A stretch of DNA of 64,000 nt from the sequence record OZ035743.1; one strand, 5' to 3'. The position numbers were made by a program, and so were the translations under genes. This document shows positions 40,200 through 54,840 of the stretch, one piece after another (positions within the stretch are counted from its first letter, which is position 1; every line of letters begins with the position of its first letter). Source of the stretch: Phapecoctavirus DIJ07P1. Under the pieces are notes generated by a model. That model saw nothing but the letters and a program-made list of their open reading frames with translations. It did no database searches and was not told the DNA's origin.

Positions 40200-40209
40200 T
40201 GGAGGTAAT

Positions 40210-40799: not shown

Positions 40800-40812
40800 G
40801 AGGAGAAAGAAT

Positions 40813-40977
40813 ATGATCTCTTTAGAATCAATAGCTTTTAAGAAGGGGTATACCGCAGGGTTCAAGTTTGGTATGTTTAATAAAGTAAATCCATATTGTC
40901 CAATGACACACAAAAAGGAATTCGAAGAATGGGAAGATGGATTTTCTAAAGGCTATCAGGCAAAAGGTTGGTTGTAA
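40813..40977 (+). CDS. Hypothetical small protein
   Basis: Start set at Met after GAGGAG RBS. Confidence 0.45.
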   Translation: MISLESIAFKKGYTAGFKFGMFNKVNPYCPMTHKKEFEEWEDGFSKGYQAKGWL

Positions 40978-40986
40978 GGAGAGAAT

Positions 40987-41151
40987 ATGATTTTAAACTT
41001 CATCATCAACTTGTGTTTGACATTGGGGTTACTCTGTGCAATAGTATCCCCTTTGGTTGGTGAATATTGTTCTGAACTGGCGATGTTTATAGTTCTTGGT
41101 GCGGCTATTGCTAATATGTTTGTCGCTGCGATTTGTATGTTGTGGGAATAG
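40987..41151 (+). CDS. Small hydrophobic membrane peptide (below ORF-track cutoff)
   Basis: about 54 aa (MILNFIINLCLTLGLLCAIVSPLVGEYCSELAMFIVLGAAIANMFVAAICMLWE); AGGAGAG RBS. Confidence 0.4.
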   Translation: MILNFIINLCLTLGLLCAIVSPLVGEYCSELAMFIVLGAAIANMFVAAICMLWE

Positions 41152-41162
41152 GAGGGAAGTTT

Positions 41163-41519: not shown

Positions 41520-42658
41520 TGAAATACACTATTTTTGGAGATGTAGCTGTTGTAAATAAGGAATATGGCGTTGAAGCTAATAAACTTCCTGCTGGAGTTT
41601 GGGTTGTCAACTGCGATCCGCACGGTAACTACTCTTTAGTGCGTGGTGAAAGTTTCTCTCTTCCGAACACTCTTTATGGGGAAACTAAAGATCGCGCCGC
41701 ACATGTTATTAAAACATTTGCTCGTCGTAGTAAAGAAGGTAAAAATACTGGGGTGTTACTGACAGGGACAAAAGGCAGTGGTAAGACGATGTTAGCTAAA
41801 CTAATTAGCATGTCTCTAATGTCCACAGAAGGTTTAGGTATTCCAACCATTTTGGTTACACAGCCTTACACAGATGCTGGCTTCTTAGAATTTATGAGTA
41901 AAATTACAGATCGTGCTGTTGTTTTATTTGACGAATTTGATAAAGTGTACGCTAAGAAAGAAGATCAGGAAGCACTGTTGACCTTGTTGGATGGAACAGG
42001 AAGTGGGAATAAACTTTACATCCTCACTAAAAATAGTGGTTATATCTCGGAATATTTTGTAAACCGTCCTAGTCGTATCTACTACAGTTTCAATTACGAT
42101 AAACTGTCTAGTGAAACTATGTTAGATTACTTGGATAAGAACTTGGTAAATAAAAAGCACGTAGATAACTTCCAACGTTTATGGGATGTTAGCACAGAGT
42201 TGTCTTTCGATGTTATTCAAGGCATTGTAGAAGAATTGAATTTCTATCCAAAAATGACTTTTAAAGAATGTCTTGAAATGATGGGTATTTCTTTAGGGAA
42301 CGATGCTAAATGGAATGTGGCTTCTATCGTAGCTAATGGCAAAACCTTGAAGGTGAATTGGATCAATAACTGGCACGACTTCACCCCTACTAAGTTTTTG
42401 TCGGGTGCTTGTTCCCTGAACATCTATCTACAAAGTTTGAAAGATGATGAAGTGGAAGCAATGGAAACCAACAGTTATGTTATCCTGGATGAAGATGGTG
42501 ATCCACATATTGATCTATGTGCAACGGCTGATGGTCTAACTTGTGATCTGATTGAAGGTGGTAAGATTCTGGTTATGAGCACTACACCAGGAAACACTTT
42601 GCGAGTGGTGCTGGAGCCTGTAACACAACGTTCCACTACACTTGGTAGCGTGTTCTAA
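41519..42658 (+). CDS. AAA+ ATPase
   Basis: 379 aa; Walker A GTKGSGKT, Walker B VVLFDEFD. Confidence 0.75.
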   Translation: MKYTIFGDVAVVNKEYGVEANKLPAGVWVVNCDPHGNYSLVRGESFSLPNTLYGETKDRAAHVIKTFARRSKEGKNTGVLLTGTKGSGKTMLAKLISMSLMSTEGLGIPTILVTQPYTDAGFLEFMSKITDRAVVLFDEFDKVYAKKEDQEALLTLLDGTGSGNKLYILTKNSGYISEYFVNRPSRIYYSFNYDKLSSETMLDYLDKNLVNKKHVDNFQRLWDVSTELSFDVIQGIVEELNFYPKMTFKECLEMMGISLGNDAKWNVASIVANGKTLKVNWINNWHDFTPTKFLSGACSLNIYLQSLKDDEVEAMETNSYVILDEDGDPHIDLCATADGLTCDLIEGGKILVMSTTPGNTLRVVLEPVTQRSTTLGSVF

Positions 42659-42663
42659 TAAAG

Positions 42664-42681
42664 ATGCCCCGCAAGGGGCAT
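42664..42681 (+). terminator. Hairpin terminator
   Basis: atgccccgcaaggggcat stem-loop followed by TTGTT. Confidence 0.55.
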
Positions 42682-42746
42682 TTGTTATGGAGGGATTTTA
42701 GTTATTCTTTTGTTGTAGGCTCGCACTAATAGCTAAAGGGGGAGGT

Positions 42747-44207
42747 GTGCCAAAAATAGTCACTTGGGAACAATATAAAACAGATATAAAACAAGCTTAT
42801 CAAGGTAAGTCTTGGACTGTTGTAGATTATATTGAGCCGTGGAACGGCAATAAAACTAAACTTAGATGCATCTGTGCTCTGCATGGAGAATGGAAAACAA
42901 CAAGCATAAATACCGCTAAACTAGGGAGGGGTTGTCCAGAATGCGGTAGGGAGATTATAAGTAAAGCAGTATCTATAAACAAATCAAAAACCTGGGAGCA
43001 ATATAAAGAAGAAGTGCAAACCACTTACAATCAGGCAGGTAAGTTTTGGACTGTTACAGGATGGCACGGAGAATGGAAAGGATGGAATACTAAACTGGTT
43101 TGTTGTTGTGCTTTACATGGGGAGTGGAGGTCTACTTCTATATCTTCTGCGAAAAACGGGAGTGGATGCAGGAAGTGTATGGGAGAAGCAAACAGAGAAA
43201 GAACATCGATTGCATGGGAGAAACATAAAGAAGAAGTAGAAGAAGCTTATAAAGAAAAACCCTGGATTGTTAGAGGCTATGTGGAACCGTGGAACGGTTC
43301 CCGCACTAAGTTGATTTGTGAGTGTAAGGTTCATGGTCAATGGTGCACTACCACTGTAAACAGTGCTAAACAAGGGACTGGATGCTACAGTTGTCAAAGA
43401 GAAATGACGAAACAAAGGAATACAATGGAGGATAAACAACATGTTGAAGATTTTATAAAAGCTTGTCCTGATAATGTAGAGCGTAAATATTATCGTAGCG
43501 ATAGAGTAGATAGATTAGGTCGTCAGGTTTACTGGATTGTAGAATGTCCTATATGTGCAGAGGATGATTATTGTAAAGAAGGCTTATGCGATAATAAATT
43601 TGAGATGAAGATGAGTCATTTGAAAAGGGGTGGCCTTCCTTGCCGTTGTTCTAAATATTATCATTACACTCCTGAACAATGGGCCTACCGTATGACCAAA
43701 GCTTGCCAGGAACGAGGGGATCAATTTATAGGATTCATTGATAAGGTAAGCAATAACAGCAAGTTTAAATATCTATGTAGGGAGCATGGAGAGCAAACGA
43801 TCACACCTACCGATTATCTCAATGGGAAAGGTTGTCCAGGCTGTAAGAACAGAAATATGCAAGAATTTTACATCAATATTATTCTTGATGAGTACGGAGA
43901 AGACACGGGAGCTTACAAGTTGGGGATTGCAAAGGACAGTGATATCAGGATCAAAGGGCAGAATGCAAACAACAATTACTCTATGCGCCGTATAGCATTG
44001 TTCGATCTGCCGTCCTACCAAGCTTGCAGGGCGTTAGAGAGTAAGCTAAAGTCTAAGACTGATCAGATTCTACCGTCTATTGGCTGTGTAGAACGCTTGC
44101 ACATGAAAGATGGTCATAGTGAAACCTTCCTGCGCGAGGATTTGGCTATCGTCTTAAGTGCTATCAACCAAGCAGGTGGAATAATGAGAGAGGAGGAAAC
44201 ATGTTAG
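42747..44207 (+). CDS. Zinc-ribbon tandem-repeat protein with C-terminal GIY-YIG-like region
   Basis: 486 aa; four tandem ~75-aa repeats (W..YK...W.V..Y.EPWNG..TKL.C.C..HGEW.TTS.N.AK.G.GC..C); C-terminal EFYINIIL...GAYKLGIA. Confidence 0.7.
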   Translation: MPKIVTWEQYKTDIKQAYQGKSWTVVDYIEPWNGNKTKLRCICALHGEWKTTSINTAKLGRGCPECGREIISKAVSINKSKTWEQYKEEVQTTYNQAGKFWTVTGWHGEWKGWNTKLVCCCALHGEWRSTSISSAKNGSGCRKCMGEANRERTSIAWEKHKEEVEEAYKEKPWIVRGYVEPWNGSRTKLICECKVHGQWCTTTVNSAKQGTGCYSCQREMTKQRNTMEDKQHVEDFIKACPDNVERKYYRSDRVDRLGRQVYWIVECPICAEDDYCKEGLCDNKFEMKMSHLKRGGLPCRCSKYYHYTPEQWAYRMTKACQERGDQFIGFIDKVSNNSKFKYLCREHGEQTITPTDYLNGKGCPGCKNRNMQEFYINIILDEYGEDTGAYKLGIAKDSDIRIKGQNANNNYSMRRIALFDLPSYQACRALESKLKSKTDQILPSIGCVERLHMKDGHSETFLREDLAIVLSAINQAGGIMREEETC

Positions 44208-44566
44208 TTGACGTTCAAATTATGCGCAACGAAAGAATGGACTTCTTTGAAGCAGTAGAGAAACATCTGATCAGATGGGACTATGAATTTGTTCCTGCTG
44301 GATGTGGACCAGTAGAGCATTTAGCGGAAGACGACGATGTATACATGATCATTCGTCAAGTGTACCAGACAGACCAGTGTGAAGAAACTCCCGAACTGAT
44401 TTTGTTTGAGTGTAAAGATCTTGCAAAATATTTTGACTATGGCGGAAAAGAGGGTCATAATCTCTCCAGATACAATAAACGTCTACTTATCTTAGACTAC
44501 ATGCGGAACAACAAACACAAACTCATCGACGCAGACGCAGTTTATGGCTACTGGTGGATGGACTAA
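44201..44566 (+). CDS. Hypothetical protein
   Basis: 121-aa ORF. Confidence 0.55.
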   Translation: MLVDVQIMRNERMDFFEAVEKHLIRWDYEFVPAGCGPVEHLAEDDDVYMIIRQVYQTDQCEETPELILFECKDLAKYFDYGGKEGHNLSRYNKRLLILDYMRNNKHKLIDADAVYGYWWMD

Positions 44567-44579
44567 CAAAGGAGAAACT

Positions 44580-44759
44580 ATGGCACGTTTAGCAGATCAT
44601 GAAATCTTTAAACCTATTCTGAACCACTATGATGAACTTAAAGCAGTGTTGGATTGTTATAGAGAGGATGAAGAACGTTTGGAAGTCAATCTTAAGATAG
44701 TTCTGATGAAAGCTTTTCAAGACGGGCAAGCTAAAGTTTTAGAAGGCATGAAAAAATGA
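44580..44759 (+). CDS. Hypothetical small protein
   Basis: Start set at Met after GGAGAAA RBS. Confidence 0.45.
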   Translation: MARLADHEIFKPILNHYDELKAVLDCYREDEERLEVNLKIVLMKAFQDGQAKVLEGMKK

Positions 44760-45298
44760 GAATAACTGATGAATATGTATTCTTCTTTTCACATAAAGAT
44801 GTGTTTAGTAATTGGTATATTGCACCCTTTACAGAAACTGAACCAGGTTACAATGAGACTTTCTGTTGTGTTGAGCAATATATGATGTGGCGTAAGGCTT
44901 TGCTGTTCAAGGATCATGCGATTGCAGCAGCTATCCTTGATCACTCAACTATACGTGACAACGAGAGGAAACAAGCATACTACAAACGTATGGGTCGAGC
45001 GGTATCTGGTTTTAATAATGATATGTGGGAAGAGAACCGTGAGCGTATTGTTATGCGAGGCTTATGCTTGAAATATGTACAGAATCCAGATTTGTATGCA
45101 GACTTACACCTTTACCAATACAAAACGTTTGTTGAAGCAAGTCCTTACGATAAGGTTTACGGTATTGGAATGGGAATGTATGAACCAGGGGTGCTAAACC
45201 CTGCTACCTGGAAAGGGCAGAATCTTTTAGGCAAATATCATAATAAACTGATCGAAATACTTTTCCCAGACAAAATACCGCAAAGACGATATTTGTGA
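44756..45298 (+). CDS. NADAR-domain (YbiA-like, DUF1768) protein
   Basis: 180 aa; VFFFSHKDVFSNWY...CCVEQYMMWRKALLF parallels E. coli YbiA INFYS...FSNF...SEHYFQAQKF. Confidence 0.65.
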   Translation: MRITDEYVFFFSHKDVFSNWYIAPFTETEPGYNETFCCVEQYMMWRKALLFKDHAIAAAILDHSTIRDNERKQAYYKRMGRAVSGFNNDMWEENRERIVMRGLCLKYVQNPDLYADLHLYQYKTFVEASPYDKVYGIGMGMYEPGVLNPATWKGQNLLGKYHNKLIEILFPDKIPQRRYL

Positions 45299-45353
45299 TA
45301 TTTTAACTTTTTTCATTTTTAGAACAAAGGTGTCACTTTGTAGCACAGAAATA

Positions 45354-45380
45354 AGGCTCCTACAGCACCGTAGAGAGCCT
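45354..45380 (+). terminator. Rho-independent terminator
   Basis: aggctc-ctacagcaccgtagag-agcct hairpin followed by gttattttgt. Confidence 0.65.
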
Positions 45381-45540
45381 GTTATTTTGTCCTATACAAA
45401 CCCTTGTCTTTTTCAGTTTGCATCACTAGGATTCGATCTGAGTGGGTTCCTGAAGGTTTACCAATAAGATTAAAGGTTATATCAAATTCCCACTATCTTT
45501 TATCTCAAAAATCCCTCAAATTATTTAAACTTTTTAAGAA

Positions 45541-45717
45541 TTTACAAAAATGAAAGTACAAAAGCAAAATTTAAAGTTTAGGAAAATTATCTTAAAATGT
45601 TAGATACAAAACAAAACTCAAAAGTCAAGGAAAATTTTAAAAATTTTGCGCGCCCACAGTATTTAAAGTTTTTTTGCTTTTACAAAAATGAAAGTACAAA
45701 AGCAAAATTTAAAGTTT
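45541..45717. repeat. 40-bp direct repeat pair in AT-rich intergenic region
   Basis: tttacaaaaatgaaagtacaaaagcaaaatttaaagttta at 45541..45580 and 45678..45717. Confidence 0.8.
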
Positions 45718-45740
45718 ACAAAAATTTTTATGCAGGTGAA

Positions 45741-45846
45741 AATGAGAAGAGTTCTCATATGGAAATGCAAATGATAATGATTCGCATTTAAGTTTATAAA
45801 TGAGATTGATTCTTATTTAATAAGGTAAATGACAATCATTCTCATT
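45741..45846. promoter_or_regulatory. Four tandem ~19-bp palindromes resembling the Fur box
   Basis: aatgagaagagttctcat; aatgataatgattcgcatt; aatgagattgattcttatt; aatgacaatcattctcatt at ~28-bp spacing; last copy matches GATAATGATAATCATTATC at 14/16 aligned positions. Confidence 0.45.
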
Positions 45847-46106
45847 TAGAGAATGACGCGCAGGGGCGGTGTTTGTCTCGCGCTCCCGTGTCCCCTCGCC
45901 ATGTAATAAGAATAACAGATCCAGCCAGGAAAGCAAGCGATTATTTTATCTTTACATTTCTTTACAAATATATAGCACCCAGCCTACCGGCGATCAACCT
46001 TCCAACCAGTGCCCCCTGGTATGTTAGCCCCGCCTTTACGCCGTGGGGTGGCGCTTCCTCTTCTGTATGTAAAACAGTATAAGCCCGATCCCTGGGCTTG
46101 TCAAGA

Positions 46107-46373
46107 TTATTTTTTGTTTTCTTGCCAGGATAGGACACCTAACCAAAAATACATATCGCCCCGCGCCCCTGGTGGTATCTTGCTTTCCCCGCCGCCACTG
46201 CAAGCCCATAGATAACCATTTGCGAACGTATCAAAATGATCTATCTCTTCCACCTTATGATCGCCCAGGTTGAGAACGGTTTCAACCTTTAAGCCCGTTG
46301 CGCTTGCTACCTGGTGCACCGTGCCGCCTTGCCAGCCCAATGAGTGCATAAGGTGTAATGTAGTATTTGTCAT
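46107..46373 (-). CDS. Hypothetical protein in GC-rich island
   Basis: 88-aa ORF; competing ORFs on both strands; weak RBS. Confidence 0.35.
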   Translation of the reverse strand: MTNTTLHLMHSLGWQGGTVHQVASATGLKVETVLNLGDHKVEEIDHFDTFANGYLWACSGGGESKIPPGARGDMYFWLGVLSWQENKK

Positions 46374-46482
46374 GATATCGCCCTTTCTTTGTTGTGCGCC
46401 CTGGTTGGCGCGGTAGAAAGATAATAGCCCTTTTCTTTATATATAGCAAGCAAAAAGAAAATAAAAAAGATTGAAAAATGGT

Positions 46483-46540
46483 TGACGTTAACCAGGCGGC
46501 GGCGTAGTATTCATCTTGTAGGGCGGCAATGGTGCCGCTC
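46483..46540 (+). promoter_or_regulatory. Promoter-leader cassette 1
   Basis: TTGACG-spacer-TAGTAT then tagGGCGGCAATGGTGCCGCtc leader hairpin. Confidence 0.6.
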
Positions 46541-46559
46541 ACTATTTGGAGTTAAGATC

Positions 46560-46757
46560 ATGGCAACATTGCACATTGTGGCGAAAGCTGGACAAATCAA
46601 CGTAGTGGTAAACGGTTTTACTGAGTTCAGTCACCCCCAGGATGATCATGAAACGGTTTTATCTTTCATTGATTCCCTGTTAGAAATGGGAGTCATTACA
46701 GAAGACCAGCACGCTACAAAATGCAAGCGCGTTAATCAAATTGCAGGAATAGAATAA
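46560..46757 (+). CDS. Hypothetical small protein
   Basis: Start set at MATLHIVAK after GGAG RBS. Confidence 0.55.
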   Translation: MATLHIVAKAGQINVVVNGFTEFSHPQDDHETVLSFIDSLLEMGVITEDQHATKCKRVNQIAGIE

Positions 46758-46763
46758 AAAGTA

Positions 46764-46823
46764 TTGACAACAAACAACAACCTGATAAGATGTATCACAT
46801 AGGGCGGCGGAATGGTCCACCGC
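46764..46823 (+). promoter_or_regulatory. Promoter-leader cassette 2
   Basis: TTGACA-16-TAAGAT-gtatcacat-aGGGCGGCGGAATGGTCCACCGC; then cacaacagaagagagattatcatc-ATG. Confidence 0.7.
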
Positions 46824-46848
46824 TCACAACAGAAGAGAGATTATCATC

Positions 46849-47121
46849 ATGGCATCATATAGCGCAACAATGATCGTAGCTGGCACCACTGGTAAACCTA
46901 TGCGCGGTGGCGGATCTTTCGCTAATATCAATATTGACGGGCGTTTATCCCTGGACGCAGCGATCACCGTGGCGCGGGAAACATTTAAGAAAGAATGTAA
47001 ATTCAATAAACAAGATTATCTCGGTTTTGCTATTGAAAAAACCGCGCGCTTTGTTGATTATAAAAGCCCGAAAATGGTTGACACTACATTAAAAGCGCAA
47101 GATGTAGCGTTTTTGCTTTAA
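46849..47121 (+). CDS. Hypothetical small protein
   Basis: 90-aa ORF after cassette 2. Confidence 0.6.
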   Translation: MASYSATMIVAGTTGKPMRGGGSFANINIDGRLSLDAAITVARETFKKECKFNKQDYLGFAIEKTARFVDYKSPKMVDTTLKAQDVAFLL

Positions 47122-47124
47122 GGC

Positions 47125-47180
47125 TTGACATTAACGAATAATTTGTTAATATGTTACATAAAGCGGGAATAGTTCCCGCT
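47125..47180 (+). promoter_or_regulatory. Promoter-leader cassette 3
   Basis: TTGACA-16-TAATAT then GCGGGAATAGTTCCCGC hairpin. Confidence 0.65.
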
Positions 47181-47197
47181 ATTTGTAAGGTGGTAGA

Positions 47198-47455
47198 ATG
47201 TTTTACATCAAATTAAAAGGTCACGTGATCGCGTTCAAAGATAACGCTTTTTACAGATTAGCAAAATATGCGTTAATACATCCCCACTATGTTTATATAA
47301 GGGGGCGTGATGAAATAAATATCTTTGATCAAACAACATGCGAGAACATCGAGATCCGCAAGGTTGGCGTACGTGATTATCGTACATCTTTCTACCCTTG
47401 CAAGGATTCAGCAAGTCTTTTTAAAGTATGCCAATTGTTGAAAAAAGGTGGTTAA
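47198..47455 (+). CDS. Hypothetical small protein
   Basis: 85-aa ORF, RBS AAGGTGG. Confidence 0.6.
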   Translation: MFYIKLKGHVIAFKDNAFYRLAKYALIHPHYVYIRGRDEINIFDQTTCENIEIRKVGVRDYRTSFYPCKDSASLFKVCQLLKKGG

Positions 47456-48014
47456 TATGGGCCGCGAATATGTGATCCAGTCTTGGGTAAAACATGAAGC
47501 AGATGATCCGCGCATCATTCCCGATCATCTTATCGATGAATCCACGGGATATAGTGGTGAGCAAATAGGTAACAGATTAGCACGTAGTAACGGCAACGTA
47601 AAAGCGCGTTATGTGCGCCCTGGTTGGCTGGCAAATGGTAACGCTGATTTATCCAGTGCGGAAGATGCGAGCGACGGCGCGAAAGATAATCCTTTGTACA
47701 AAGTTGATCCAGCTTTTCGTGTCCTGGATGAATACCCCAGCAAGATAGCGGCGCTCGATCAGGCCCTGGAAAGTAAGCGCATCACCTGGACCGCTTACAA
47801 CATGGCAAAAAACGTACTTGATGGTAAATTGATTCAAGCTGAAAGAAAATTAGCCAAAATTGCAGCCATAGCCCAGGAGGAAGACGAGGAGACAACGGAA
47901 GAGGAAGAGTACGAAGAGATCCCGCCGTTGTTGTGTGTTGATGCTTTTCCTGATTATCAGCCGACAGAGGAAGAAAAAAGGATCGCACTAGAAAACTTTG
48001 AAAATAGTCTTTGA
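47448..48014 (+). CDS. Hypothetical acidic protein
   Basis: 188-aa ORF co-transcribed with previous; start 47448 or 47456. Confidence 0.6.
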   Translation: MVNMGREYVIQSWVKHEADDPRIIPDHLIDESTGYSGEQIGNRLARSNGNVKARYVRPGWLANGNADLSSAEDASDGAKDNPLYKVDPAFRVLDEYPSKIAALDQALESKRITWTAYNMAKNVLDGKLIQAERKLAKIAAIAQEEDEETTEEEEYEEIPPLLCVDAFPDYQPTEEEKRIALENFENSL

Positions 48015-48068
48015 CATATCGCCGCCACTGGCATAATATTTACCACGTAGGGCGGCAATGGTGCCGCT
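48012..48068 (+). promoter_or_regulatory. Promoter-leader cassette 4
   Basis: TTGACA-16-CATAAT then GCGGCAATGGTGCCGC hairpin. Confidence 0.65.
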
Positions 48069-48096
48069 CATAGTGAAATTATGCAAGAGGCTTACA

Positions 48097-48192
48097 ATGA
48101 TTAATAAAGAAAATAGCTTGACGGTTGGAACGATTAACGCTATCATTCTAGCCGTTCCATTTTGGGTTGTAGTAGCGGCTATTATTTTCTAA
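48097..48192 (+). CDS. 31-aa hydrophobic peptide
   Basis: MINKENSLTVGTINAIILAVPFWVVVAAIIF read manually; RBS AAGAGG; only ORF after cassette 4. Confidence 0.4.
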   Translation: MINKENSLTVGTINAIILAVPFWVVVAAIIF

Positions 48193-48200
48193 AAATATTC

Positions 48201-48261
48201 TTGACAACGTTTTTTAATCTGATAAGATGTATCACATAGGGCGGCGGAATACTTCCCCGCC
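48201..48261 (+). promoter_or_regulatory. Promoter-leader cassette 5
   Basis: TTGACA-16-TAAGAT-gtatcacat-aGGGCGGCGGAATACTTCCCCGCC. Confidence 0.7.
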
Positions 48262-48284
48262 AAAACAAAAAAAAGGGTAACACA

Positions 48285-48647
48285 ATGAGCAAGCAAATCA
48301 ATACTATCATGTTTAATCTGGTATCTTTCCGCGATGATATGAAAAATTTACCACGTGAAACGGTTGATATTCATGTTTCAGCTTATCGCGCCCTTATTGA
48401 CATGTTACCGCTAAAACGTGATCAACATGCCGCTAATATGATGCTTAATGCTATGCTTAAAAAGATGATTCAAACGGATCTTACTCTGGCGTATGAGTAT
48501 CAAGGGCGCTTATATGCGACTTACAACAAAGCGGTACCTGGTCTGGGAAGTACCGAAGAGTTGCACGGCTTAAACCTGGATCAAAACACTTGGGATAGTA
48601 TGCGCCGCGTTATGGTATGGGCCGAAAGCGGTAAAATTTACGAATAA
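48285..48647 (+). CDS. Hypothetical protein
   Basis: 120-aa ORF. Confidence 0.6.
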   Translation: MSKQINTIMFNLVSFRDDMKNLPRETVDIHVSAYRALIDMLPLKRDQHAANMMLNAMLKKMIQTDLTLAYEYQGRLYATYNKAVPGLGSTEELHGLNLDQNTWDSMRRVMVWAESGKIYE

Positions 48648-48654
48648 AAACGGT

Positions 48655-48710
48655 TGACACTGTTTAAACTTCTGGTATAGTTTATCACGTAGGGCGGCAA
48701 TGGTGCCGCC
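48655..48710 (+). promoter_or_regulatory. Promoter-leader cassette 6
   Basis: TTGACA-16-TATAGT-ttatcacgt-aGGGCGGCAATGGTGCCGCC. Confidence 0.7.
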
Positions 48711-48730
48711 AACAATAAAAGGTTAACATC

Positions 48731-48910
48731 ATGGCTATCATTGCAAAAACTGAGATTATAGGTTTAGATTCGATCCTCCTGGCTTATGAGGAAACTTTAA
48801 AAATGTATGTAGTGACCTATGGTGATTATGTGCGTGAATACGAATACATTGATCTTGCTTTCGAATGTTACATTCGCCAGGTCAATAAAGCCTATAATGA
48901 TTATCGTTAA
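48731..48910 (+). CDS. Hypothetical small protein (59 aa, below ORF-track cutoff)
   Basis: MAIIAKTEIIGLDSILLAYEETLKMYVVTYGDYVREYEYIDLAFECYIRQVNKAYNDYR read manually. Confidence 0.5.
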   Translation: MAIIAKTEIIGLDSILLAYEETLKMYVVTYGDYVREYEYIDLAFECYIRQVNKAYNDYR

Positions 48911-48929
48911 AAGTTTTAGTCTTATACTA

Positions 48930-48981
48930 TTGACAATGAGTGATAGTATAAGCATAATAACTTTTATCGGGAATACTTCCC
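48930..48981 (+). promoter_or_regulatory. Promoter-leader cassette 7 (degenerate hairpin)
   Basis: TTGACA-17-CATAAT then CGGGAATACTTCCC. Confidence 0.55.
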
Positions 48982-49007
48982 ACTAACCAAAAAGAGAGAG
49001 TGACACC

Positions 49008-49373
49008 ATGGCTATTAATATCAATGTTTCCGCTTATGCTACCCTGGCTAACACGGCTAAAATTGAATTATCCAGCATTGAGGCGGTGCATATTAGCGCC
49101 CGTCGCTGGTTTCAACAGTCCTACGGTAACACATATTTTTCTTTAATGGTTGACGTTGAGATCGGCGGTAAACTGATCGAGGTGGTTAACGTTCCGTTTC
49201 AATATGGCTATGGTGATCATTTTGATACCGTCGCCCTGGAAGAATTTAGCAAGGTTATCAACCTTGAGGGCAAGGAATTTTCACGCGGCGCGTATCTTTC
49301 CCGTTTTTGCCGTGACAATGGGATCACTGTATACAGTCATGCAAGCGATGTAAAACGTAAAAAAGATTTATAA
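49008..49373 (+). CDS. Hypothetical protein
   Basis: 121-aa ORF. Confidence 0.6.
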   Translation: MAININVSAYATLANTAKIELSSIEAVHISARRWFQQSYGNTYFSLMVDVEIGGKLIEVVNVPFQYGYGDHFDTVALEEFSKVINLEGKEFSRGAYLSRFCRDNGITVYSHASDVKRKKDL

Positions 49374-49379
49374 AAAGCA

Positions 49380-49438
49380 TTGACAGCACGAATAAAAAGA
49401 GTAAACTGTATTACATAGAGAGCGGGAATAGTTCCCGC
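49380..49438 (+). promoter_or_regulatory. Promoter-leader cassette 8
   Basis: TTGACA-16-TAAACT-gtattacatagaga-GCGGGAATAGTTCCCGC. Confidence 0.65.
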
Positions 49439-49462
49439 CTCATTCAAAGAGAGATTATCATC

Positions 49463-49702
49463 ATGGCTATTACTAAAACTTACAACGGTCACAAAAACAA
49501 AACTCACTGGAATGTAAGCCTTTGGATTAATAACGACGAATCATTATATCGGTTGGCGAAAGAATTTATCGCCGCTAATACTAATCGTAATGATGCTGCC
49601 CGTGATATGATGTTATTCCTGGAACAAACTGGACAAGATAAAACTCCAGACGGTTTCAAGTATAGCACTACAGCGATCCGCGCCGCGATGGTTGGAATGT
49701 AA
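49463..49702 (+). CDS. Hypothetical small protein
   Basis: 79-aa ORF. Confidence 0.6.
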   Translation: MAITKTYNGHKNKTHWNVSLWINNDESLYRLAKEFIAANTNRNDAARDMMLFLEQTGQDKTPDGFKYSTTAIRAAMVGM

Positions 49703-49711
49703 TAAAAACAG

Positions 49712-49771
49712 TTGACAACGTTTAAAATTAGTGTAAGATGTATCACATAGGGCGGGAAGTGGTTTCCCGCC
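49712..49771 (+). promoter_or_regulatory. Promoter-leader cassette 9
   Basis: TTGACA-16-TAAGAT-gtatcacat-aGGGCGGGAAGTGGTTTCCCGCC (perfect 8-bp stem). Confidence 0.7.
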
Positions 49772-49793
49772 AACAACAGAGAGATTAAAGATT

Positions 49794-50021
49794 ATGGCTA
49801 TCAATATTGTTCGCGTATCCGGCACCGTTGGCACTTCCCAGGTTATTGCAGTTGTAACAAACAAAAAGATTAATGATGTATGTGAGATCTTGAATAAGTG
49901 GGCTATTGCTAATTTTGGGGAATATGCAAGCGTCGAGTACATCGAATCCTACCAGGTGCCAACCATCAGCCTGACCGATCTCAACGTTGATCGCCTGTTA
50001 TGCCTGGATGAATTAATCTGA
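49794..50021 (+). CDS. Hypothetical small protein
   Basis: 75-aa ORF. Confidence 0.6.
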   Translation: MAINIVRVSGTVGTSQVIAVVTNKKINDVCEILNKWAIANFGEYASVEYIESYQVPTISLTDLNVDRLLCLDELI

Positions 50022-50032
50022 AAAAGATTGTT

Positions 50033-50086
50033 GACACGGGAAAGAAAAAGAGTAAACTGTTACAGGTAGGGCGGGAATAGTGCCGC
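50033..50086 (+). promoter_or_regulatory. Promoter-leader cassette 10 (hybrid hairpin)
   Basis: TTGACA...TAAACT-gttacaggt-aGGGCGGGAATAGTGCCGC; 5' arm of one variant with 3' arm of another. Confidence 0.6.
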
Positions 50087-50111
50087 TCACAACAGAAGAG
50101 AGATTATCACG

Positions 50112-50324
50112 ATGGCTAATATCCGCACACTGTTAAAAAATGCAAGTCAAGTTTTATTTTCTGATCACGATCATTTTAATAAAGATATTACAGGCGTGAA
50201 GAATATCAAAGATGTAAAAAGTGTTATGGGTATATATTGCAATGTTAAACGTGTTGGAACGTTCGGTGATAAAGTATTGTACCAATCAGGTGATTACAAT
50301 TTTACTTTGACGATTATTTCATAA
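50112..50324 (+). CDS. Hypothetical small protein
   Basis: 70-aa ORF. Confidence 0.6.
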   Translation: MANIRTLLKNASQVLFSDHDHFNKDITGVKNIKDVKSVMGIYCNVKRVGTFGDKVLYQSGDYNFTLTIIS

Positions 50325-50329
50325 AACGC

Positions 50330-50391
50330 TTGCAATACTGCAAAAATAAAGTAAACTGTATTACATCAAGGCGGCGGAATGGTCCACCGCC
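50330..50391 (+). promoter_or_regulatory. Promoter-leader cassette 11
   Basis: TTGCAA...TAAACT-gtattacatca-aGGCGGCGGAATGGTCCACCGCC. Confidence 0.6.
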
Positions 50392-50415
50392 TAACAAAGA
50401 GAAGAGGAAAATATT

Positions 50416-50583
50416 ATGATCACTTTCGCTACCCGTGAAGCCGCTCGCAACGTTGCACGTAAAGTTAACGCCGCCAACCTGGGCGCTACGCTTAAAGCCC
50501 CTGTAAAAGATGAATCAGGAAAATGGATCTTCCCTGGTCTACGTCATGCTGACAAGTTAGGTACTTTAAGCCTTAAAAAATAA
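50416..50583 (+). CDS. Hypothetical small basic protein (55 aa, below ORF-track cutoff)
   Basis: MITFATREAARNVARKVNAANLGATLKAPVKDESGKWIFPGLRHADKLGTLSLKK read manually; shares MITFA start with 50836..51057. Confidence 0.5.
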   Translation: MITFATREAARNVARKVNAANLGATLKAPVKDESGKWIFPGLRHADKLGTLSLKK

Positions 50584-50585
50584 TC

Positions 50586-50625
50586 GTTGACTTTTCGTTA
50601 TAGCGCCTTATAATGGGCGCTATAG
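50586..50625 (+). promoter_or_regulatory. Promoter with -10 embedded in a palindrome
   Basis: TTGACT-17-TATAAT with atagcgcc / ggcgctat inverted repeat flanking the -10. Confidence 0.55.
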
Positions 50626-50660
50626 AGAAGAGAAACCAGTCACAACAGAGAGAAAATATC

Positions 50661-50822
50661 ATGACCAATAAAGAAAAAGCCATCATTAAAGCACATTATC
50701 CACATCTAACATTACGTTTTAAAGCCGATGGATCTGTTATGGCCTCCAGTGGGCGCGGGTATGCTTACGGTTTACTTTACACCGCACAACAAGCGCAAGA
50801 TCATTTAAACGCAGTAAAATAA
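50661..50822 (+). CDS. Hypothetical small protein
   Basis: Start set at MTNKEK after GAGAGAAAA RBS (ORF track begins 50613). Confidence 0.5.
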   Translation: MTNKEKAIIKAHYPHLTLRFKADGSVMASSGRGYAYGLLYTAQQAQDHLNAVK

Positions 50823-50835
50823 CAAGGAAACCATT

Positions 50836-51057
50836 ATGATCACTTTCGCTATTGTCGCCGTTGTTGCTGGTCAAGTTTACGTAAATGAGACATTTACTAC
50901 AGAAGACAAGGCAGCAGGAGATATAACCGCCGTTTACAATGAGTGCAAGGCAGTAGAAAGGATGTTAGCGCCTTGTATGCTAATGAGTGAACGCCAGGAC
51001 GGAATAACAGTATTTACTAACATTGGAACAGGGTACCAAATGGTAGTAACAAAATAA
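50836..51057 (+). CDS. Hypothetical small protein with hydrophobic N-terminus
   Basis: 73-aa ORF, RBS AAGGAAA. Confidence 0.55.
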   Translation: MITFAIVAVVAGQVYVNETFTTEDKAAGDITAVYNECKAVERMLAPCMLMSERQDGITVFTNIGTGYQMVVTK

Positions 51058-51060
51058 AGC

Positions 51061-51117
51061 TTGACACCGATTTAATTTTTAGTAAACTGTTACAGGTAGG
51101 GCGGGAATAGTTCCCGC
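51061..51117 (+). promoter_or_regulatory. Promoter-leader cassette 12
   Basis: TTGACA...TAAACT-gttacaggt-aGGGCGGGAATAGTTCCCGC. Confidence 0.7.
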
Positions 51118-51136
51118 TCAAAAAGAGAGAAAGACC

Positions 51137-51490
51137 ATGAAAGCACAAAATGCAATTAAAGAGTACATCCTTGCCGCTATCGATTTTAATGATTACGGTA
51201 TTACAACCGAAAAAGAGAAGATCGCGGAATTGATGCGCCGTTTTAATTCCGAGTACTGGTACCCTGATAACCAATCACGTTTTAATTATAGTATTGTTAA
51301 AGCACTTGCATCATGGTTACAAGGTTTGCCATCAGATATCAATATCGCTTTCGAATATTGGGAAATTGATCGCTTGTTAACATCCTGGGGATACATTAAA
51401 GAGAATAGCAGCGATGATAAAATCCAACGAGAAAGGGAAAATTATTGGCTTTATATTGCAGGCGTGATCCTTGCTTGCTCTTATGAATGA
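51137..51490 (+). CDS. Hypothetical protein
   Basis: 117-aa ORF. Confidence 0.6.
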   Translation: MKAQNAIKEYILAAIDFNDYGITTEKEKIAELMRRFNSEYWYPDNQSRFNYSIVKALASWLQGLPSDINIAFEYWEIDRLLTSWGYIKENSSDDKIQRERENYWLYIAGVILACSYE

Positions 51491-51496
51491 TAAACC

Positions 51497-51549
51497 TTGA
51501 CAATTTTACAAAACAGTTTAAATTAACAATATAGCGGCAATGGTGCCGC
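51497..51549 (+). promoter_or_regulatory. Promoter-leader cassette 13
   Basis: TTGACA-16-TAAATT...ataGCGGCAATGGTGCCGC. Confidence 0.6.
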
Positions 51550-51568
51550 TCATATGAAGAGGAAACAA

Positions 51569-51715
51569 AATGAATACATCTAATCGCGCAGAAAAAATTC
51601 AATCTTCCAAGATCCGCAAGGCCTGGAACGAGGAAGTGATCCGCAAAGGCGACAAGCGTAATAAAACAAAGCGCGGGAAGAGTGACAAATATAATTGGAT
51701 GGATTTAGAGGATTA
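51569..51715 (+). CDS. 48-aa Lys/Arg-rich basic protein (below ORF-track cutoff)
   Basis: MNTSNRAEKIQSSKIRKAWNEEVIRKGDKRNKTKRGKSDKYNWMDLED, codons checked manually; RBS GAGGAAA. Confidence 0.5.
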
Positions 51716-51722
51716 ACATAAC

Positions 51723-51749
51723 AAGGGCGCATCAAGCGCCCTTTCTTTT
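51723..51749 (+). terminator. Rho-independent terminator (copy 1 of a repeated terminator)
   Basis: agggcgcatcaagcgccct followed by ttcttttt. Confidence 0.75.
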
Positions 51750-51771
51750 TACATGTAGAGGATAAACAAAA

Positions 51772-51957
51772 ATGACTTTAAACGAGCTTAAAACAGCCTA
51801 CAACGCAACATTAAAAATAGCCGTGCGTTACCGTGATGCGTATGGTTTTATCGCGCAGGGCGTGATCCTGGGCTTTTCTGACGATGGTTTGATCTATGTT
51901 GATGCACATCACAACAAGGTTAAACCTGAAAACGTCATTAGCATAAAATATCTTTAA
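51772..51957 (+). CDS. Hypothetical small protein
   Basis: 61-aa ORF, RBS AGAGGA. Confidence 0.55.
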   Translation: MTLNELKTAYNATLKIAVRYRDAYGFIAQGVILGFSDDGLIYVDAHHNKVKPENVISIKYL

Positions 51958-51963
51958 AAACGG

Positions 51964-52020
51964 TTGACAGCATAACCAAGTATGATAAGATGTATCACGT
52001 AGGGCGGGAATAGTTCCCGA
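51964..52020 (+). promoter_or_regulatory. Promoter-leader cassette 14
   Basis: TTGACA-16-TAAGAT-gtatcacgt-aGGGCGGGAATAGTTCCCG. Confidence 0.7.
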
Positions 52021-52042
52021 CCACATAAAAGAGAAAAACATT

Positions 52043-52255
52043 ATGACCACTATCACAACAAAACAAGAAAAAATTATTACAGACATTGCCGCAGTAGCCG
52101 CTATTGCTATTATTGGTACCTACTATGACACCGCGCGACCTTCCTCCTTACATGAGATCGCCGCCGTTGCATCAGTTGGCGTACTGTTTTACGTTGGTAA
52201 ACGCTATTTATCACCAATGATTAACAAGCTGACACCGTGGAAAAATAAAGGTTGA
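52043..52255 (+). CDS. Small membrane protein
   Basis: 70 aa, hydrophobic core. Confidence 0.55.
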   Translation: MTTITTKQEKIITDIAAVAAIAIIGTYYDTARPSSLHEIAAVASVGVLFYVGKRYLSPMINKLTPWKNKG

Positions 52256-52261
52256 TCCTGT

Positions 52262-52316
52262 TTTATATTGTGTTATAGTTATCGTGTAGGGCGGCAATGG
52301 TGCCGCGCCCCTTTGA
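52262..52316 (+). promoter_or_regulatory. Promoter-leader cassette 15
   Basis: TTGATC-16-TATAGT-tatcgtgt-aGGGCGGCAATGGTGCCGC. Confidence 0.6.
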
Positions 52317-52326
52317 GGATGCAATC

Positions 52327-52611
52327 ATGCGTAAAGCTAACACCGTGCTAATGTTTTCCCTGATTAATAATGCCGCTTACTTGTCCAACATGACGCAGGA
52401 GGGTAACACATTAACGGCAACATTCACCAATAAGCTTGACCGAGTGATCATAATCTCACTGAAAACAGTTAGTAAAGGCTTTTACTCGTTAGCTTATCAT
52501 TGTATCACTGACACCGACGAGACAAGCCAGGACTATAGCGCCCCTTTCCCTGAATCAATGGCACGGGAGATCATCGCCGCCGTTGTAAATGATGGTTTGT
52601 TTACTGCATAA
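52327..52611 (+). CDS. Hypothetical protein
   Basis: Start set at MRKANT after GAGGATG RBS. Confidence 0.55.
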   Translation: MRKANTVLMFSLINNAAYLSNMTQEGNTLTATFTNKLDRVIIISLKTVSKGFYSLAYHCITDTDETSQDYSAPFPESMAREIIAAVVNDGLFTA

Positions 52612-52627
52612 AATAATTCAGAAAAGG

Positions 52628-52686
52628 CTTGCAATAATTTTCAGACCGTGTATATTTAATTCATAGGGCGGCGGGAATAGTTCCCT
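52628..52686 (+). promoter_or_regulatory. Promoter-leader cassette 16 (degenerate)
   Basis: TTGCAA...TATATT...catagGGCGGCGGGAATAGTTCCC. Confidence 0.55.
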
Positions 52687-52708
52687 AAGCAAACGAGAGG
52701 ATTACACG

Positions 52709-52828
52709 ATGAGCAAGTATACAGTAGAATACACGGTAGAAAATCCGGCAGTATCCGAAGGTAAAAAGATGACATTTGCCATCAGTATAATCGCTTTCGT
52801 TATCACTATCTTATCAATCATCTTATAA
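52709..52828 (+). CDS. 39-aa hydrophobic peptide
   Basis: MSKYTVEYTVENPAVSEGKKMTFAISIIAFVITILSIIL read manually; RBS GAGAGGA. Confidence 0.4.
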   Translation: MSKYTVEYTVENPAVSEGKKMTFAISIIAFVITILSIIL

Positions 52829-52966
52829 GGTGCGTACTATGAAAACAACAGACATTATCAAAGAGATCGCCCTTGCCGCTGACGTTGAGATCGAGGAAGT
52901 GATCGCGCTCAACCTTACAGAAAACGATCTACTCAATCTATGAAGCGTTATAATTGACAACAAAAC

Positions 52967-52993
52967 AAGGGCGCACCAAGCGCCCTTTCTTTT
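52967..52993 (+). terminator. Rho-independent terminator (copy 2, near-identical to 51723..51749)
   Basis: agggcgcaccaagcgccct followed by ttcttttt. Confidence 0.75.
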
Positions 52994-52994
52994 T

Positions 52995-54495
52995 GCCCGA
53001 ACAATGTTGATAGCTTTCGCCTATGAAAAACCGACACAGAACAAAACTGAATAAATCGCGGTATCGAGCTAATCAACCAGCAAACGAATAACCATACCTC
53101 CCAGGGTTACAGGCTGTTAGAGAGCCATTTAGAGCGGTTAAAATCGATCAACAACCAACAACAAACCATCAAAAACACCCTTTTACCTCCTTTCTAGTGC
53201 AATGATAACCATTATCATCTACCCATGATTATCTATGCAATATAAGCGCATAATTATAATGTTGATAATAGTTCGCAACAACTAACCAACAAACAACATA
53301 AAACAATAAGCAAACTAATCATAATCAAAGGAATAATAGCAAGATGATTGATAACGACAAACAATCAAACCATGATGAATACTAAGCAAGATAACGATAA
53401 CACGACAAAACAACCAACTAACGAACAATAACAAACGAAACCATTAAAATAATAACTATTAGCAAAATAGTGCATGAATGAAATCATTACAAAACGAATC
53501 ATTCACAGAGTCATCATTAGCACGCTATGCCGGACACATAGCGAGCTAATAATAAGCCAACTACACCCCAACAATCATAACCATCGGTGACGGTTATTTC
53601 TTGTTACTGCGTAGCTTGCAATAATTGCAAGCGTAATGACGCTTACACTTATTGCGCTGGCTTATTATTAGCATTATATGTAATTACCAAGATCATAACA
53701 TTAGCGCAATAACAATAGTCATTGTGATAATTACAAGATGAGATCATTAGCAAGATGAATAATTGCACGTAGCAACATGAGCGAATAGCGACAGGTTGCA
53801 TAGTGTGCACATAGTGTATAAACATACAAGAAAATAAAGGCTAATCTTTTGGGGGCGAATACTATCGCGTAGCGATATGTTGAGCACCTTCTCTTAAACG
53901 TAAATAAAATCAGAAAATTCTTGATTTATTTTGGCTTTTATGTTAATAAACGTTTAAATAATAATCATTCTCATATAAATAATAGTCTGCTTGTCATGAG
54001 CGGCATTAGTTGACATTGTTCCGTCATATGATGAAGTTGCCAAGCCATTGATAAATAAGTGTTTGTGTGATTTATAATCAGGTGGCCCACCTTGTCGCTA
54101 TGTTGGCATGAGCCTTGCATAAGTCATTGAATACGAATGATAATTATTCTCATTCGCATGATATTTGGGAATTGTCGCTGCGTGGACCTGACGGCCCGAA
54201 AATTCGCGTTAAGCACTTCTTACGTATGCGCCATGATTTTTGCCATATGATATTGATTCTATTAGATATTCTTGCCATTATTGCCATGAAACAGGGTGTG
54301 TCGAAATAATTGCTCCCCGTAGATATTTTGGGTTACTTTTTATACAAGAGTGGGGTGTCAAAAATAATCGGTATATATGGGATAATTGATAGGAATCCCC
54401 TATGATAATTCGATTGTAATTCCCTAAGATTGATCGTATGATGTTGGTGATTGATGATTGCCATGAAAGATGGCTAACGATGAGAGGAGATTGTC
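52995..54495. other. A/C-rich, strand-asymmetric non-coding region (~1.5 kb)
   Basis: No convincing ORF; plus strand dominated by A and C with recurring CAAGATGA / GATAACGA / ATCATTAGC words. Confidence 0.6.
53957..54157. promoter_or_regulatory. Fur-box-like palindromes (second locus)
   Basis: aataataatcattctcat (53957..53974) and cgaatgataattattctcattcg (54135..54157); same motif family as 45741..45846. Confidence 0.45.
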
Positions 54496-54840
54496 ATGCA
54501 AGAGAGTAAAAATGTTCCGTTGAGTAGTTTACGTCTAATGAAGTTTTACAAAGCTTGGCTTGCTGGTGAGGTAGAAGGTCACACAACGAGTGGTTTGTGC
54601 ATATGTTTGATTAAGTATGTAGAGGGAACATATCCTGATAAACTGTTACCTCGTCTACAACAGGAGATGAAATCACAGTTTATTAGTGCAGGATTGGATT
54701 ACAATTTCCCGTTTAATGAAGGTGGTTATGAAGAATACACCTTCGAACATAAAAAACATATTTGCCATAAAAACAAACATCGTATACAATGGGTGTTAGA
54801 TAGAATTCAGGATTATGAAGGAGAGAAAAATGACAAATAG
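54496..54840 (+). CDS. Paralogue family X member 1
   Basis: 114 aa; shares FYKAWL, TSGLC.CL, AGLDYN.PFN, R.QWV.DRI blocks with 54830..55198 and 60255..60569. Confidence 0.65.
   Translation: MQESKNVPLSSLRLMKFYKAWLAGEVEGHTTSGLCICLIKYVEGTYPDKLLPRLQQEMKSQFISAGLDYNFPFNEGGYEEYTFEHKKHICHKNKHRIQWVLDRIQDYEGEKNDK

Follow-up and report, generated by a model that had tools for sequence, protein, structure and literature searches.

Genes for two families of predicted membrane microproteins in a shuffling cassette array of Phapecoctavirus DIJ07P1

In the T4-type phages RB49 and phi1, promoter-early stem-loop (PeSL) cassettes combine strong sigma-70-like promoters with stem-loops that flank ORFans in hyperplastic regions, and crossovers take place within the element, even in the loop (Arbiol et al. 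2010, PMC2839356; Comeau et al. 2014, PMC4122927). In one subclass, the stem-loop is located 3' of the -10 hexamer (PMC2839356). Among small membrane proteins, PhiNM1 Gp11 is an early phage product that binds MurG and DivIC and blocks the division of S. aureus (PMC11237401), and bacterial small membrane-protein regulators of ≤50 amino acids (aa) have been reviewed (PMC12648545). Here we describe a PeSL-like array in a stretch of 64,000 nucleotides (nt) from Phapecoctavirus DIJ07P1 (OZ035743.1; the whole stretch is called the window), and two plus-strand open reading frames (ORFs) within it, of 31 aa (48097..48192) and 39 aa (52709..52828). Comparative sequence evidence indicates that both are genuine protein-coding genes belonging to two unrelated families, each with a polar N-terminal segment followed by a hydrophobic C-terminal stretch. 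Phapecoctavirus comprises phAPEC8-like E. coli myophages of the subfamily Stephanstirmvirinae with a genome of ~150 kb. The stretch 46400-53000 is 94-99% identical to many Escherichia phages of this genus, and annotated relatives carry the same series of small hypothetical genes.

The array (46482..52995, plus strand) consists of 17 tandem early-gene cassettes that end at an intrinsic terminator; before this terminator, the 17 units span 46482 to 52711. It was delimited by inspecting 45300-53400 together with repeat finding (repeat families D1-D8), a promoter and terminator scan, a motif count, a hairpin table and alignment. Each unit is laid out as TTGACA, a spacer of 16-17 nt, a TAnnnT -10 hexamer, a conserved TCACATAGGGCGG... 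hairpin, a purine-rich Shine-Dalgarno (SD) sequence, an ATG and a small ORF. Promoter-leader cassettes had been proposed in a preliminary description of this DNA, and they are real: the core motif TAGGGCGGNAATNGTNCCGC is present in 9 copies where 0.04 would be expected, and in 15 of the 17 cassettes a stable hairpin (-11 to -17 kcal/mol) begins 7-13 nt 3' of the -10, close to where the transcript is predicted to start. The exceptions are cassette 17, whose hairpin is degenerate, and cassette 12, whose hairpin lies over the -10. Most cassettes match 10-11 of the 12 consensus positions in the promoter scan (9 for c01, c16 and c17; c11 is unlisted), which is a sequence-level score and not a measure of activity. 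Among relatives, 62 distinct hairpin sequences were collected 3' of promoter-like sites, and many variants change both arms yet still pair (GCGGCA/TGCCGC, GGCGGGAA/TTCCCGCC, GGGGAGAA/TTCTCCCC, GGCCGGGA/TTCCCGGTC).

Neither the promoter and terminator scan nor the sequence revealed a T-run after the cassette hairpins. The scan placed true terminators only at 51723-51743 and 52967-52987; the latter closes the array with an 8-bp GC stem and a T-run (52967..52995, plus strand), and a second copy of it, 94% identical, lies at 51715-51750 (repeat family D19). In GenBank, the hairpins are labelled 'promoter determined with PHIRE' in phAPEC8 and 'rho-independent terminator' in ASO2A; the element has therefore been noticed earlier, but it was read inconsistently. 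The remaining cassette products belong to PHROGs of unknown function.

Like PeSLs, the array repeats, many times within a hyperplastic region, a near-consensus sigma-70-like promoter with a GC-rich stem-loop next to it and the SD/ATG that opens a small ORFan, and ORFs are gained, lost or replaced between close relatives, with a crossover inside the hairpin. It differs from them in that its host is a Stephanstirmvirinae (rV5-like) myophage whereas PeSLs belong to T4-type phages, in that the hairpin nearly always follows the -10 whereas PeSLs mostly lie between or over the hexamers, and in that the array hairpin has its own conserved core, GGNAAT-GT-CC. The likeness is one of sequence: terminator or attenuator activity and mini-circles are features of PeSLs, and the hairpins here have no T-run. 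Our literature search found no paper that links PeSLs to rV5-like phages or that covers stem-loop promoters in phAPEC8 or PVP-SE1. We also observed that cassette 12 (50587-50622) has no hairpin after its -10; instead, an inverted repeat, ATAGCGCC / GGGCGCTAT, flanks TATAAT, as in another PeSL subclass. Apart from the 31-aa peptide, the first product of this cassette (53 aa, 50661-50822) is the only protein of the array that belongs to no PHROG.

The 31-aa ORF (MINKENSLTVGTINAIILAVPFWVVVAAIIF) belongs to cassette 4. Its promoter (TTGACA, 17-nt spacer, TAATAT; 48011..48039, plus strand) matches 10/12 consensus positions and is identical in relatives that share the upstream context. A hairpin with an 8-bp stem, GGGCGGCA-AUGG-UGCCGCUC (48050..48069, plus strand; -15 kcal/mol for the structure), begins ~4-11 nt 3' of the -10, close to where the mRNA is predicted to start, and the SD AAGAGG (48085..48090, plus strand) stands 6 nt 5' of the ATG. 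No other plausible ORF is present between this promoter and the next one at 48201-48228. Homologues were detected by tblastn in 113 phage records (Phapecoctavirus, Justusliebigvirus and Klebsiella phages), the region itself matching 204 records, and 16 loci were then extracted to compare frame and context. The frame is intact in all 16, with 31-39 codons and length variation at the termini only. The homologues occur in at least five unrelated upstream contexts, and homology begins at the ATG (2-3 nt before it). These contexts are the window-type leader, a 110-nt leader in Justusliebigvirus, a hydrophobic ORF of 27 aa that precedes the homologue in phiWec181, another cassette in Klebsiella phage KP2025 and a position within an operon in Klebsiella phage 05F01.

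The amino-acid sequence of this family is constrained at particular positions. M1, G11, N14 and P21 are invariant and K4, L8, T9, V10, I13, V20 and W23 are nearly so; the Klebsiella-phage homologues, at 52-56% identity, retain G11, N14 and P21. Among 13 distinct nucleotide sequences, the variable columns are distributed over the three codon positions as 8/5/18 (chi-square p=0.011). The pooled ratio of nonsynonymous to synonymous changes (pN/pS) is 0.28, falling to ~0.08 in the most divergent pairs from E. coli phages. The exact peptide is present in NCBI as a hypothetical protein, and it belongs to no family in PHROG, Pfam, NCBIfam or PADLOC. An exhaustive HMMER search against 1.84 billion proteins returned a single 50%-identity representative at E<=0.001, the query being too short to reach the Klebsiella homologues of 52-56% identity, and the match of DsbD_2 to the 05F01 homologue is a sub-threshold one attributable to chance.

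Depending on the record, the same ORF is annotated as 31, 44 or 51 aa, or is not called. We rejected the 44-aa reading, which starts at an ATG in the hairpin loop (48058), and the 51-aa annotation of phage Eryne, because homology across contexts starts at the 48097 ATG, which is the sole ATG with an SD. Inside the ORF, at 48118-48146, there is a promoter-like sequence (TTGACG, 17-nt spacer, TATCAT; 10/12), and a GGAAC...GTTCC pairing spans codons 11-21, which may be a coincidence of conserved codons. That the ORF is the remnant of a decayed cassette marked by these two elements was considered, and support for it was not found.

The 39-aa ORF (MSKYTVEYTVENPAVSEGKKMTFAISIIAFVITILSIIL) is the first cistron of cassette 17. 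The preliminary description regarded both peptides as products of complete cassettes, which is true of cassette 4 and not of cassette 17: its promoter (TTGCAA, 16-nt spacer, TATATT; 52629..52656, plus strand) is a weaker match (9/12), and of its hairpin (52668..52690, plus strand) only GGGAA/UUCCC and two outer pairs are left, with a folding energy of -7.8 kcal/mol that is no better than that of shuffled sequence. The SD GAGAGGA (52695..52701, plus strand) lies 7 nt 5' of the ATG. The protein is laid out as an N-terminal segment of 20 residues with a conserved motif, the pair KK and a predicted C-terminal transmembrane helix. It matches phrog_10979 ('membrane protein'; moron, auxiliary metabolic gene and host takeover) with E=4.9e-23, residues 1-39 aligning to profile positions 1-39, and its FENT2 homologue is annotated with phrog_10979 as well. 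Homologues of 38-39 aa were found in Phapecoctavirus (59-100% identity), Justusliebigvirus (~40%) and Seunavirus of the Vequintavirinae (SalP219 and FENT2; 35-40%). They share an M-x-x-Y-x-V-E-Y-T-x-E-N-P-x-Y-x-E head, a basic pair (KK or RK, directly before the helix) and a hydrophobic tail whose sequence varies freely. In divergent pairs, pN/pS is 0.12-0.4. The Seunavirus gene is likewise placed 3' of a TTGACA promoter, a GGCCGGGA...TTCCCGGTC hairpin and an SD. A single-sequence AlphaFold2 model of the 39-aa protein contains a helix at residues 13-38, with a predicted local distance difference test (pLDDT) score >90 in the hydrophobic part, and an unstructured head of low confidence. The exact sequence is deposited in NCBI as a membrane or hypothetical protein.

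A second cistron begins 10-15 nt after the stop of the 39-aa gene in every genome examined. In the window, it encodes 34 aa (52839..52943, plus strand) and is a truncated chimera of a 53-aa protein (phrog_35944), as judged from the profile match and from relatives; the unit closes at the terminator at 52967-52987. Compared with phAPEC8, a deletion of ~4.3 kb (~1205 to 5458 there) has its junction at 52926..52947 (plus strand), between the short repeats GATCT...CTATGAAGCG. Homology to relatives ends at 52947 and resumes with the phAPEC8 region from 5473 onward, and the crossover is placed between GATCTgcgcaaCTATGAAGCG and GATCTactcaatCTATGAAGCG. Lost with it are ~4.3 kb of cassettes that are kept in phAPEC8 and most relatives, and the second cistron was shortened from 53 to 34 aa and joined to the terminal terminator. 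Because the deletion truncates the second cistron, the 39-aa gene persists here without an intact partner. In phage alia, an unannotated hydrophobic micro-ORF, MPYLHLFFGILLSGSFFFCILVSIVNHVLRH (31 aa; extracted locus L021 ~483-578), lies directly 5' of the 39-aa homologue. The junction after the 39-aa ORF, TAAGGTGCGTACTATG (52826-52841), resembles those after the 31-aa homologues in phAPEC8 and phi92, TAAGGGGCACACCATG and TAAGGCGTACACTATG (L003 3213-3228; L010 603-618), and these junctions may represent a shared coupling or linker sequence.

Both peptides had been described as the sole products of their cassettes. This holds for the 31-aa ORF in the window and fails for the 39-aa ORF, with its second cistron starting 10 nt after the stop. 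Elsewhere the 31-aa gene is not always alone. In phAPEC8, phi92, SKA64, nepoznato and phiWec181, a 93-aa gene (Phi92_gp225 type) follows 10 nt after the stop of a 34-35 aa homologue, and in phAPEC8 a 63-aa gene is located between the 31-aa homologue and the 93-aa gene; in phAPEC8, phi92, SKA64 and phiWec181, the homologue is the first or second cistron. The window lacks the 93-aa partner. In its lineage and in some Justusliebigvirus, the 31-aa ORF directly abuts the AT-rich stretch that precedes the next -35. The homologue of phage alia even reads on as far as a TGA that lies within TTGACA, and the peptide is also alone in its cassette in Klebsiella phage KP2025 (~55% identity). A cassette given wholly to 31 codons is real and recurrent, yet it is one arrangement among several. 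Because the cassettes shuffle in the PeSL style, the same peptide can be solo, first or second in different relatives. Another unannotated hydrophobic micro-ORF, MFTTSLFFAINFIPGFRAALEIILWTL (27 aa; L007 ~1421-1504), is located directly 5' of the 31-aa homologue in phiWec181.

Alignment with phage alia visualizes one such exchange. It covers, without a break, the 31-aa ORF from its ATG onward, the next promoter and GGGCGGC, which is the 5' arm of the hairpin that follows; past this point, alia continues with the window's cassette 2 (90-aa ORF) and the window with cassette 5. The segment 48201..48245 (plus strand), from the cassette 5 promoter (48201-48228) to the 5' half of its hairpin, therefore moves together with the 31-aa ORF in Justusliebigvirus, and the mobile unit is an ORF plus the downstream promoter, with one crossover in the hairpin. 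The breakpoints of cassettes fall at the ATG and within the next hairpin. Cassette content varies among close relatives, some of which carry the 31-aa family while others lack it, and the 31-aa and 39-aa genes are apparently dispensable in some of them.

Both peptides are predicted to be membrane-anchored. Their Kyte-Doolittle maxima, taken over 17 residues, are 2.88 for the 31-aa and 2.95 for the 39-aa peptide. In the former, a polar head of 12 residues is followed by a hydrophobic stretch of 19 residues that reaches the C-terminus. The size and the single helix, predicted from hydropathy and, for the 39-aa peptide, from the AlphaFold2 model, fit small membrane proteins of ≤50 aa. We think it probable, with moderate confidence, that the two ORFs encode membrane microproteins of an early shuffling array that act as dispensable host-takeover or exclusion factors via a specific inner-membrane partner. 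The array would be transcribed by the host RNA polymerase right after infection. Located at the 5' end of the mRNA or close to it, the hairpin would most likely shield the short transcripts from 5'-end-dependent decay, and it would also provide homology for the recombination of cassettes. The products would be tail-anchored inner-membrane microproteins with a cytoplasmic N-terminus and one C-terminal transmembrane helix (N-in/C-out), which would enter the inner membrane and bind a specific membrane-associated partner through their conserved positions. In the 31-aa family, the contact would involve the juxtamembrane K-E-N-S-L-T-V-G-T-I-N segment together with P21 and W23 in the helix; in the 39-aa family, it would involve the cytoplasmic Y-x-V-E-Y-T-x-E-N-P motif, tethered by the sequence-variable helix. 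A specific partner is suggested because conservation is position-specific (G11, N14, P21 and W23; Y-x-V-E-Y-T-x-E-N-P). That the partner is a host membrane protein, as the preliminary description proposed, is plausible by analogy and from this pattern of conservation.

Several points weigh against this reading. Searches of the literature and databases yielded no expression, localisation, toxicity or partner data for either family, and the literature search found no study of transcriptomes or ribosome profiles for these phages. Because the transcription start sites are predicted, the placement of the hairpin at the 5' terminus is only inferred, and the hairpins, being without U-tracts, could instead act in the DNA or serve to bind proteins. 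In the 39-aa family, the sequence of the transmembrane helix shows little conservation, which fits a generic perturbation of the membrane too. Searches of Pfam, NCBIfam and PADLOC and with HMMER found no characterised protein similar to either peptide. With respect to selection, one close pair of 39-aa sequences gives pN/pS >1, from six differences only, and the codon-position skew among five close 39-aa sequences (16/12/24, p=0.12) is not significant alone.

The main rival is the generic perturbation just mentioned; the two further alternatives below are poorly supported. In this rival, the peptides would be non-specific membrane-active agents that oligomerise in the inner membrane and, in the manner of type I toxins (TisB, Hok, DinQ) or of holin/antiholin proteins, change its permeability or dissipate the proton-motive force, with shut-down of host metabolism, exclusion of superinfecting phages or lysis timing as the outcome. 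The small size, the single very hydrophobic helix and the lack of any other domain agree with it, as does the 39-aa helix, which varies freely in sequence while its hydrophobicity is retained. More hydrophobic micro-ORFs are found in the arrays of relatives, and a generic property may therefore be useful. We nevertheless regard this explanation as unlikely. Conservation is position-specific and not just compositional, with G11, N14 and P21 invariant and W23 nearly so, and the conserved motif of the 39-aa family is soluble and lies outside the membrane. A depolarising toxin that is strongly expressed early would hurt a phage with a long replication programme, the genes do not adjoin lysis genes in the window, and searches of PHROG, Pfam and NCBIfam showed no homology to known toxins or holins.

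Alternatively, the ORFs might be leader or coupling ORFs whose translation, and not whose product, matters, in that it opens the message or positions ribosomes for a cistron 10-15 nt downstream. Without exception, a second cistron follows the 39-aa ORF at this distance, the 31-aa homologues of phAPEC8, phi92, SKA64 and phiWec181 are followed by the 93-aa gene 10 nt on, and the junctions are alike (TAAGGNGCRYACYATG). However, purifying selection acts on the amino-acid sequence, a conserved transmembrane helix is needless for a leader, the 31-aa ORF is kept without a partner in the window, in ~60 close relatives and in Klebsiella phage KP2025, and the 39-aa ORF is kept here despite its truncated partner, all of which makes this explanation improbable. 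Finally, chance frames in cassettes that yield non-coding RNAs, the outcome that the preliminary description had named as its refutation, or that serve only as regulatory or recombination elements, are suggested by the very short ORFs, by transcripts that fold somewhat better than shuffles (z=-2.3 for the 31-aa ORF, z=-2.56 for cassette 17) and by annotators who differ on whether the hairpins are promoters (PHIRE) or terminators, but they are highly improbable given ORFs that are intact across genera and subfamilies, the third-position excess, pN/pS well <1, a good SD at the correct spacing, homology that begins exactly at the ATG and an Rfam search with no match over the window at the gathering threshold and, at E<=1 over 45300-54600, only one chance miRNA match.

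A broader form of the preferred reading, with specific inner-membrane partners, is possible but doubtful. The peptides would then specifically inhibit or modulate host inner-membrane machines, for example those of cell-envelope synthesis or division, a transporter that competing phages rely on or a defence effector bound to the membrane, and the array would represent integron-like shuffling of the PeSL type outside T4-type phages, common to Stephanstirmvirinae and Vequintavirinae, with a unit that can shrink to 31 codons as a self-expressing module.

The third peptide of the preliminary description is encoded at 40987..41151 (plus strand). All three ORFs exist with the lengths given there (31, 39 and 54 aa), each with an SD 6-7 nt upstream (a strong one, AAGGAGAG at 40976-40983, for the 54-aa ORF), and all three products are hydrophobic as claimed, with one or two strong segments each and Kyte-Doolittle maxima of 2.4-2.95. 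The 54-aa protein had been called similar to the other two; it shares the hydrophobicity, but it has no cassette and is an operon gene. It consists of two predicted transmembrane helices and a short turn, and it matches phrog_27459 (unknown function) with E=1.4e-38, residues 1-54 on 1-54; the match to DUF6358 is sub-threshold and due to chance. The gene was found in 70 phage records. In phiWec179 and PsgM04F, syntenic homologues of 53 aa, with 47% and 40% identity, keep both hydrophobic helices, the S/A-P-x-x-G-E turn and the C-M-L-x-E/D end. The operon is tightly packed, with a soluble 54-aa ORF before the gene, a 118-aa protein whose N-terminus resembles a signal peptide and then an ATPase after it, and a 58-aa two-helix protein upstream. 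The exact sequence is already in GenBank as a hypothetical or membrane protein. From its sequence and setting, we take the 54-aa protein to be a separate two-helix membrane protein of a conserved operon.

In the whole window, scanning yielded 6 ORFs of 20-60 aa that follow an SD and encode a strongly hydrophobic segment. Four are the 31-aa, 39-aa and 54-aa ORFs and the 58-aa neighbour of the last; the other two, on the minus strand at 34255-34142 (37 aa) and 23780-23625 (51 aa), might sit within larger genes. From 39664 to 52943, 6 of 33 small ORFs contain hydrophobic segments. Besides the main subjects, two more small proteins are predicted to be membrane proteins, the two-helix 58-aa protein (40023-40199, phrog_22639) and the 70-aa product of cassette 15 (52043-52255, phrog_30003). 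A tRNA search of the window found none.

On the immediate 5' side of the array, two AT-rich direct repeats of 72 nt (45517-45588 and 45655-45726, 88% identical) are followed by a 29-nt tandem repeat at 45769-45853 and then by a GC-rich block that holds a minus-strand ORF of 87 aa (46107-46373, phrog_19316); this area (45517-46480) is labelled repeat_region in relatives. On the 3' side, 53000-54495 is a stretch of ~1.5 kb with short tandem repeats and no plus-strand ORF of ≥50 aa. It is conserved at 95-99% in 45 Phapecoctavirus records, its equivalent in phAPEC8 (5512-7022) is without an annotated coding sequence, and the rV5 paper likewise draws a 'non-coding' box. Some Phapecoctavirus genomes that are nearly identical have been entered in public databases under the names 'Campylobacter phage B15', 'Acinetobacter phage vB_AbaM_ABPW7', 'Pseudomonas phage PsgM04F' and 'Klebsiella phage ZCKP1', and the host labels of these four records look doubtful.

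With respect to known proteins, the two peptides resemble small regulators of larger membrane proteins in form. MgrB, AcrZ, MgtS, KdpF and CydX are ~30-50 aa long, have a single transmembrane helix and act by binding a larger membrane protein. The 31-aa and 39-aa peptides are likewise ≤50 aa with a single predicted transmembrane helix, but the regulators are chromosomal host genes and the phage peptides have no Pfam or NCBIfam match. Type I toxins such as TisB, Hok and DinQ, and single-gene lysis peptides such as LysM, a 37-aa protein of a single-stranded RNA phage that inhibits MurJ, form a second class, and some of them have a conserved helix proline. The phage peptides are comparable to them in length and in the single hydrophobic helix (for DinQ, see PMC3567139). 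They differ in that they have no homology to them and are encoded in the early accessory array of a large lytic phage, not in a toxin-antitoxin or lysis locus. No antisense RNA partner turned up, the region being without an Rfam match and no dedicated antisense search having been made. PhiNM1 Gp11 is an early phage small membrane protein as well, and it exemplifies the type of mechanism put forward in the preliminary description; there is no sequence relation to it, its host is Gram-positive, and its function was demonstrated by experiment, whereas that of the peptides here is only proposed.

The 39-aa and 54-aa proteins match phrog_10979 and phrog_27459 end to end, and the 31-aa family is in no PHROG. 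All three exact sequences have been deposited before, small phage membrane proteins are a known class, and there is no sign of an unexpected mechanism. The 31-aa family is without a family assignment, and PeSL-like behaviour in rV5-like phages appears to be undescribed in the literature searched. Most early genes of large lytic phages are functionally uncharacterised, and microproteins are the class that annotators most often miss or assign a wrong start. Two narrowly distributed and constrained families of membrane microproteins, with their own promoter and cheap to synthesise, are possible probes for host membrane targets, although the gain is a modest one. The cassette array makes the more general point, as it extends the PeSL style of modular shuffling from T4-type to rV5-like phages.

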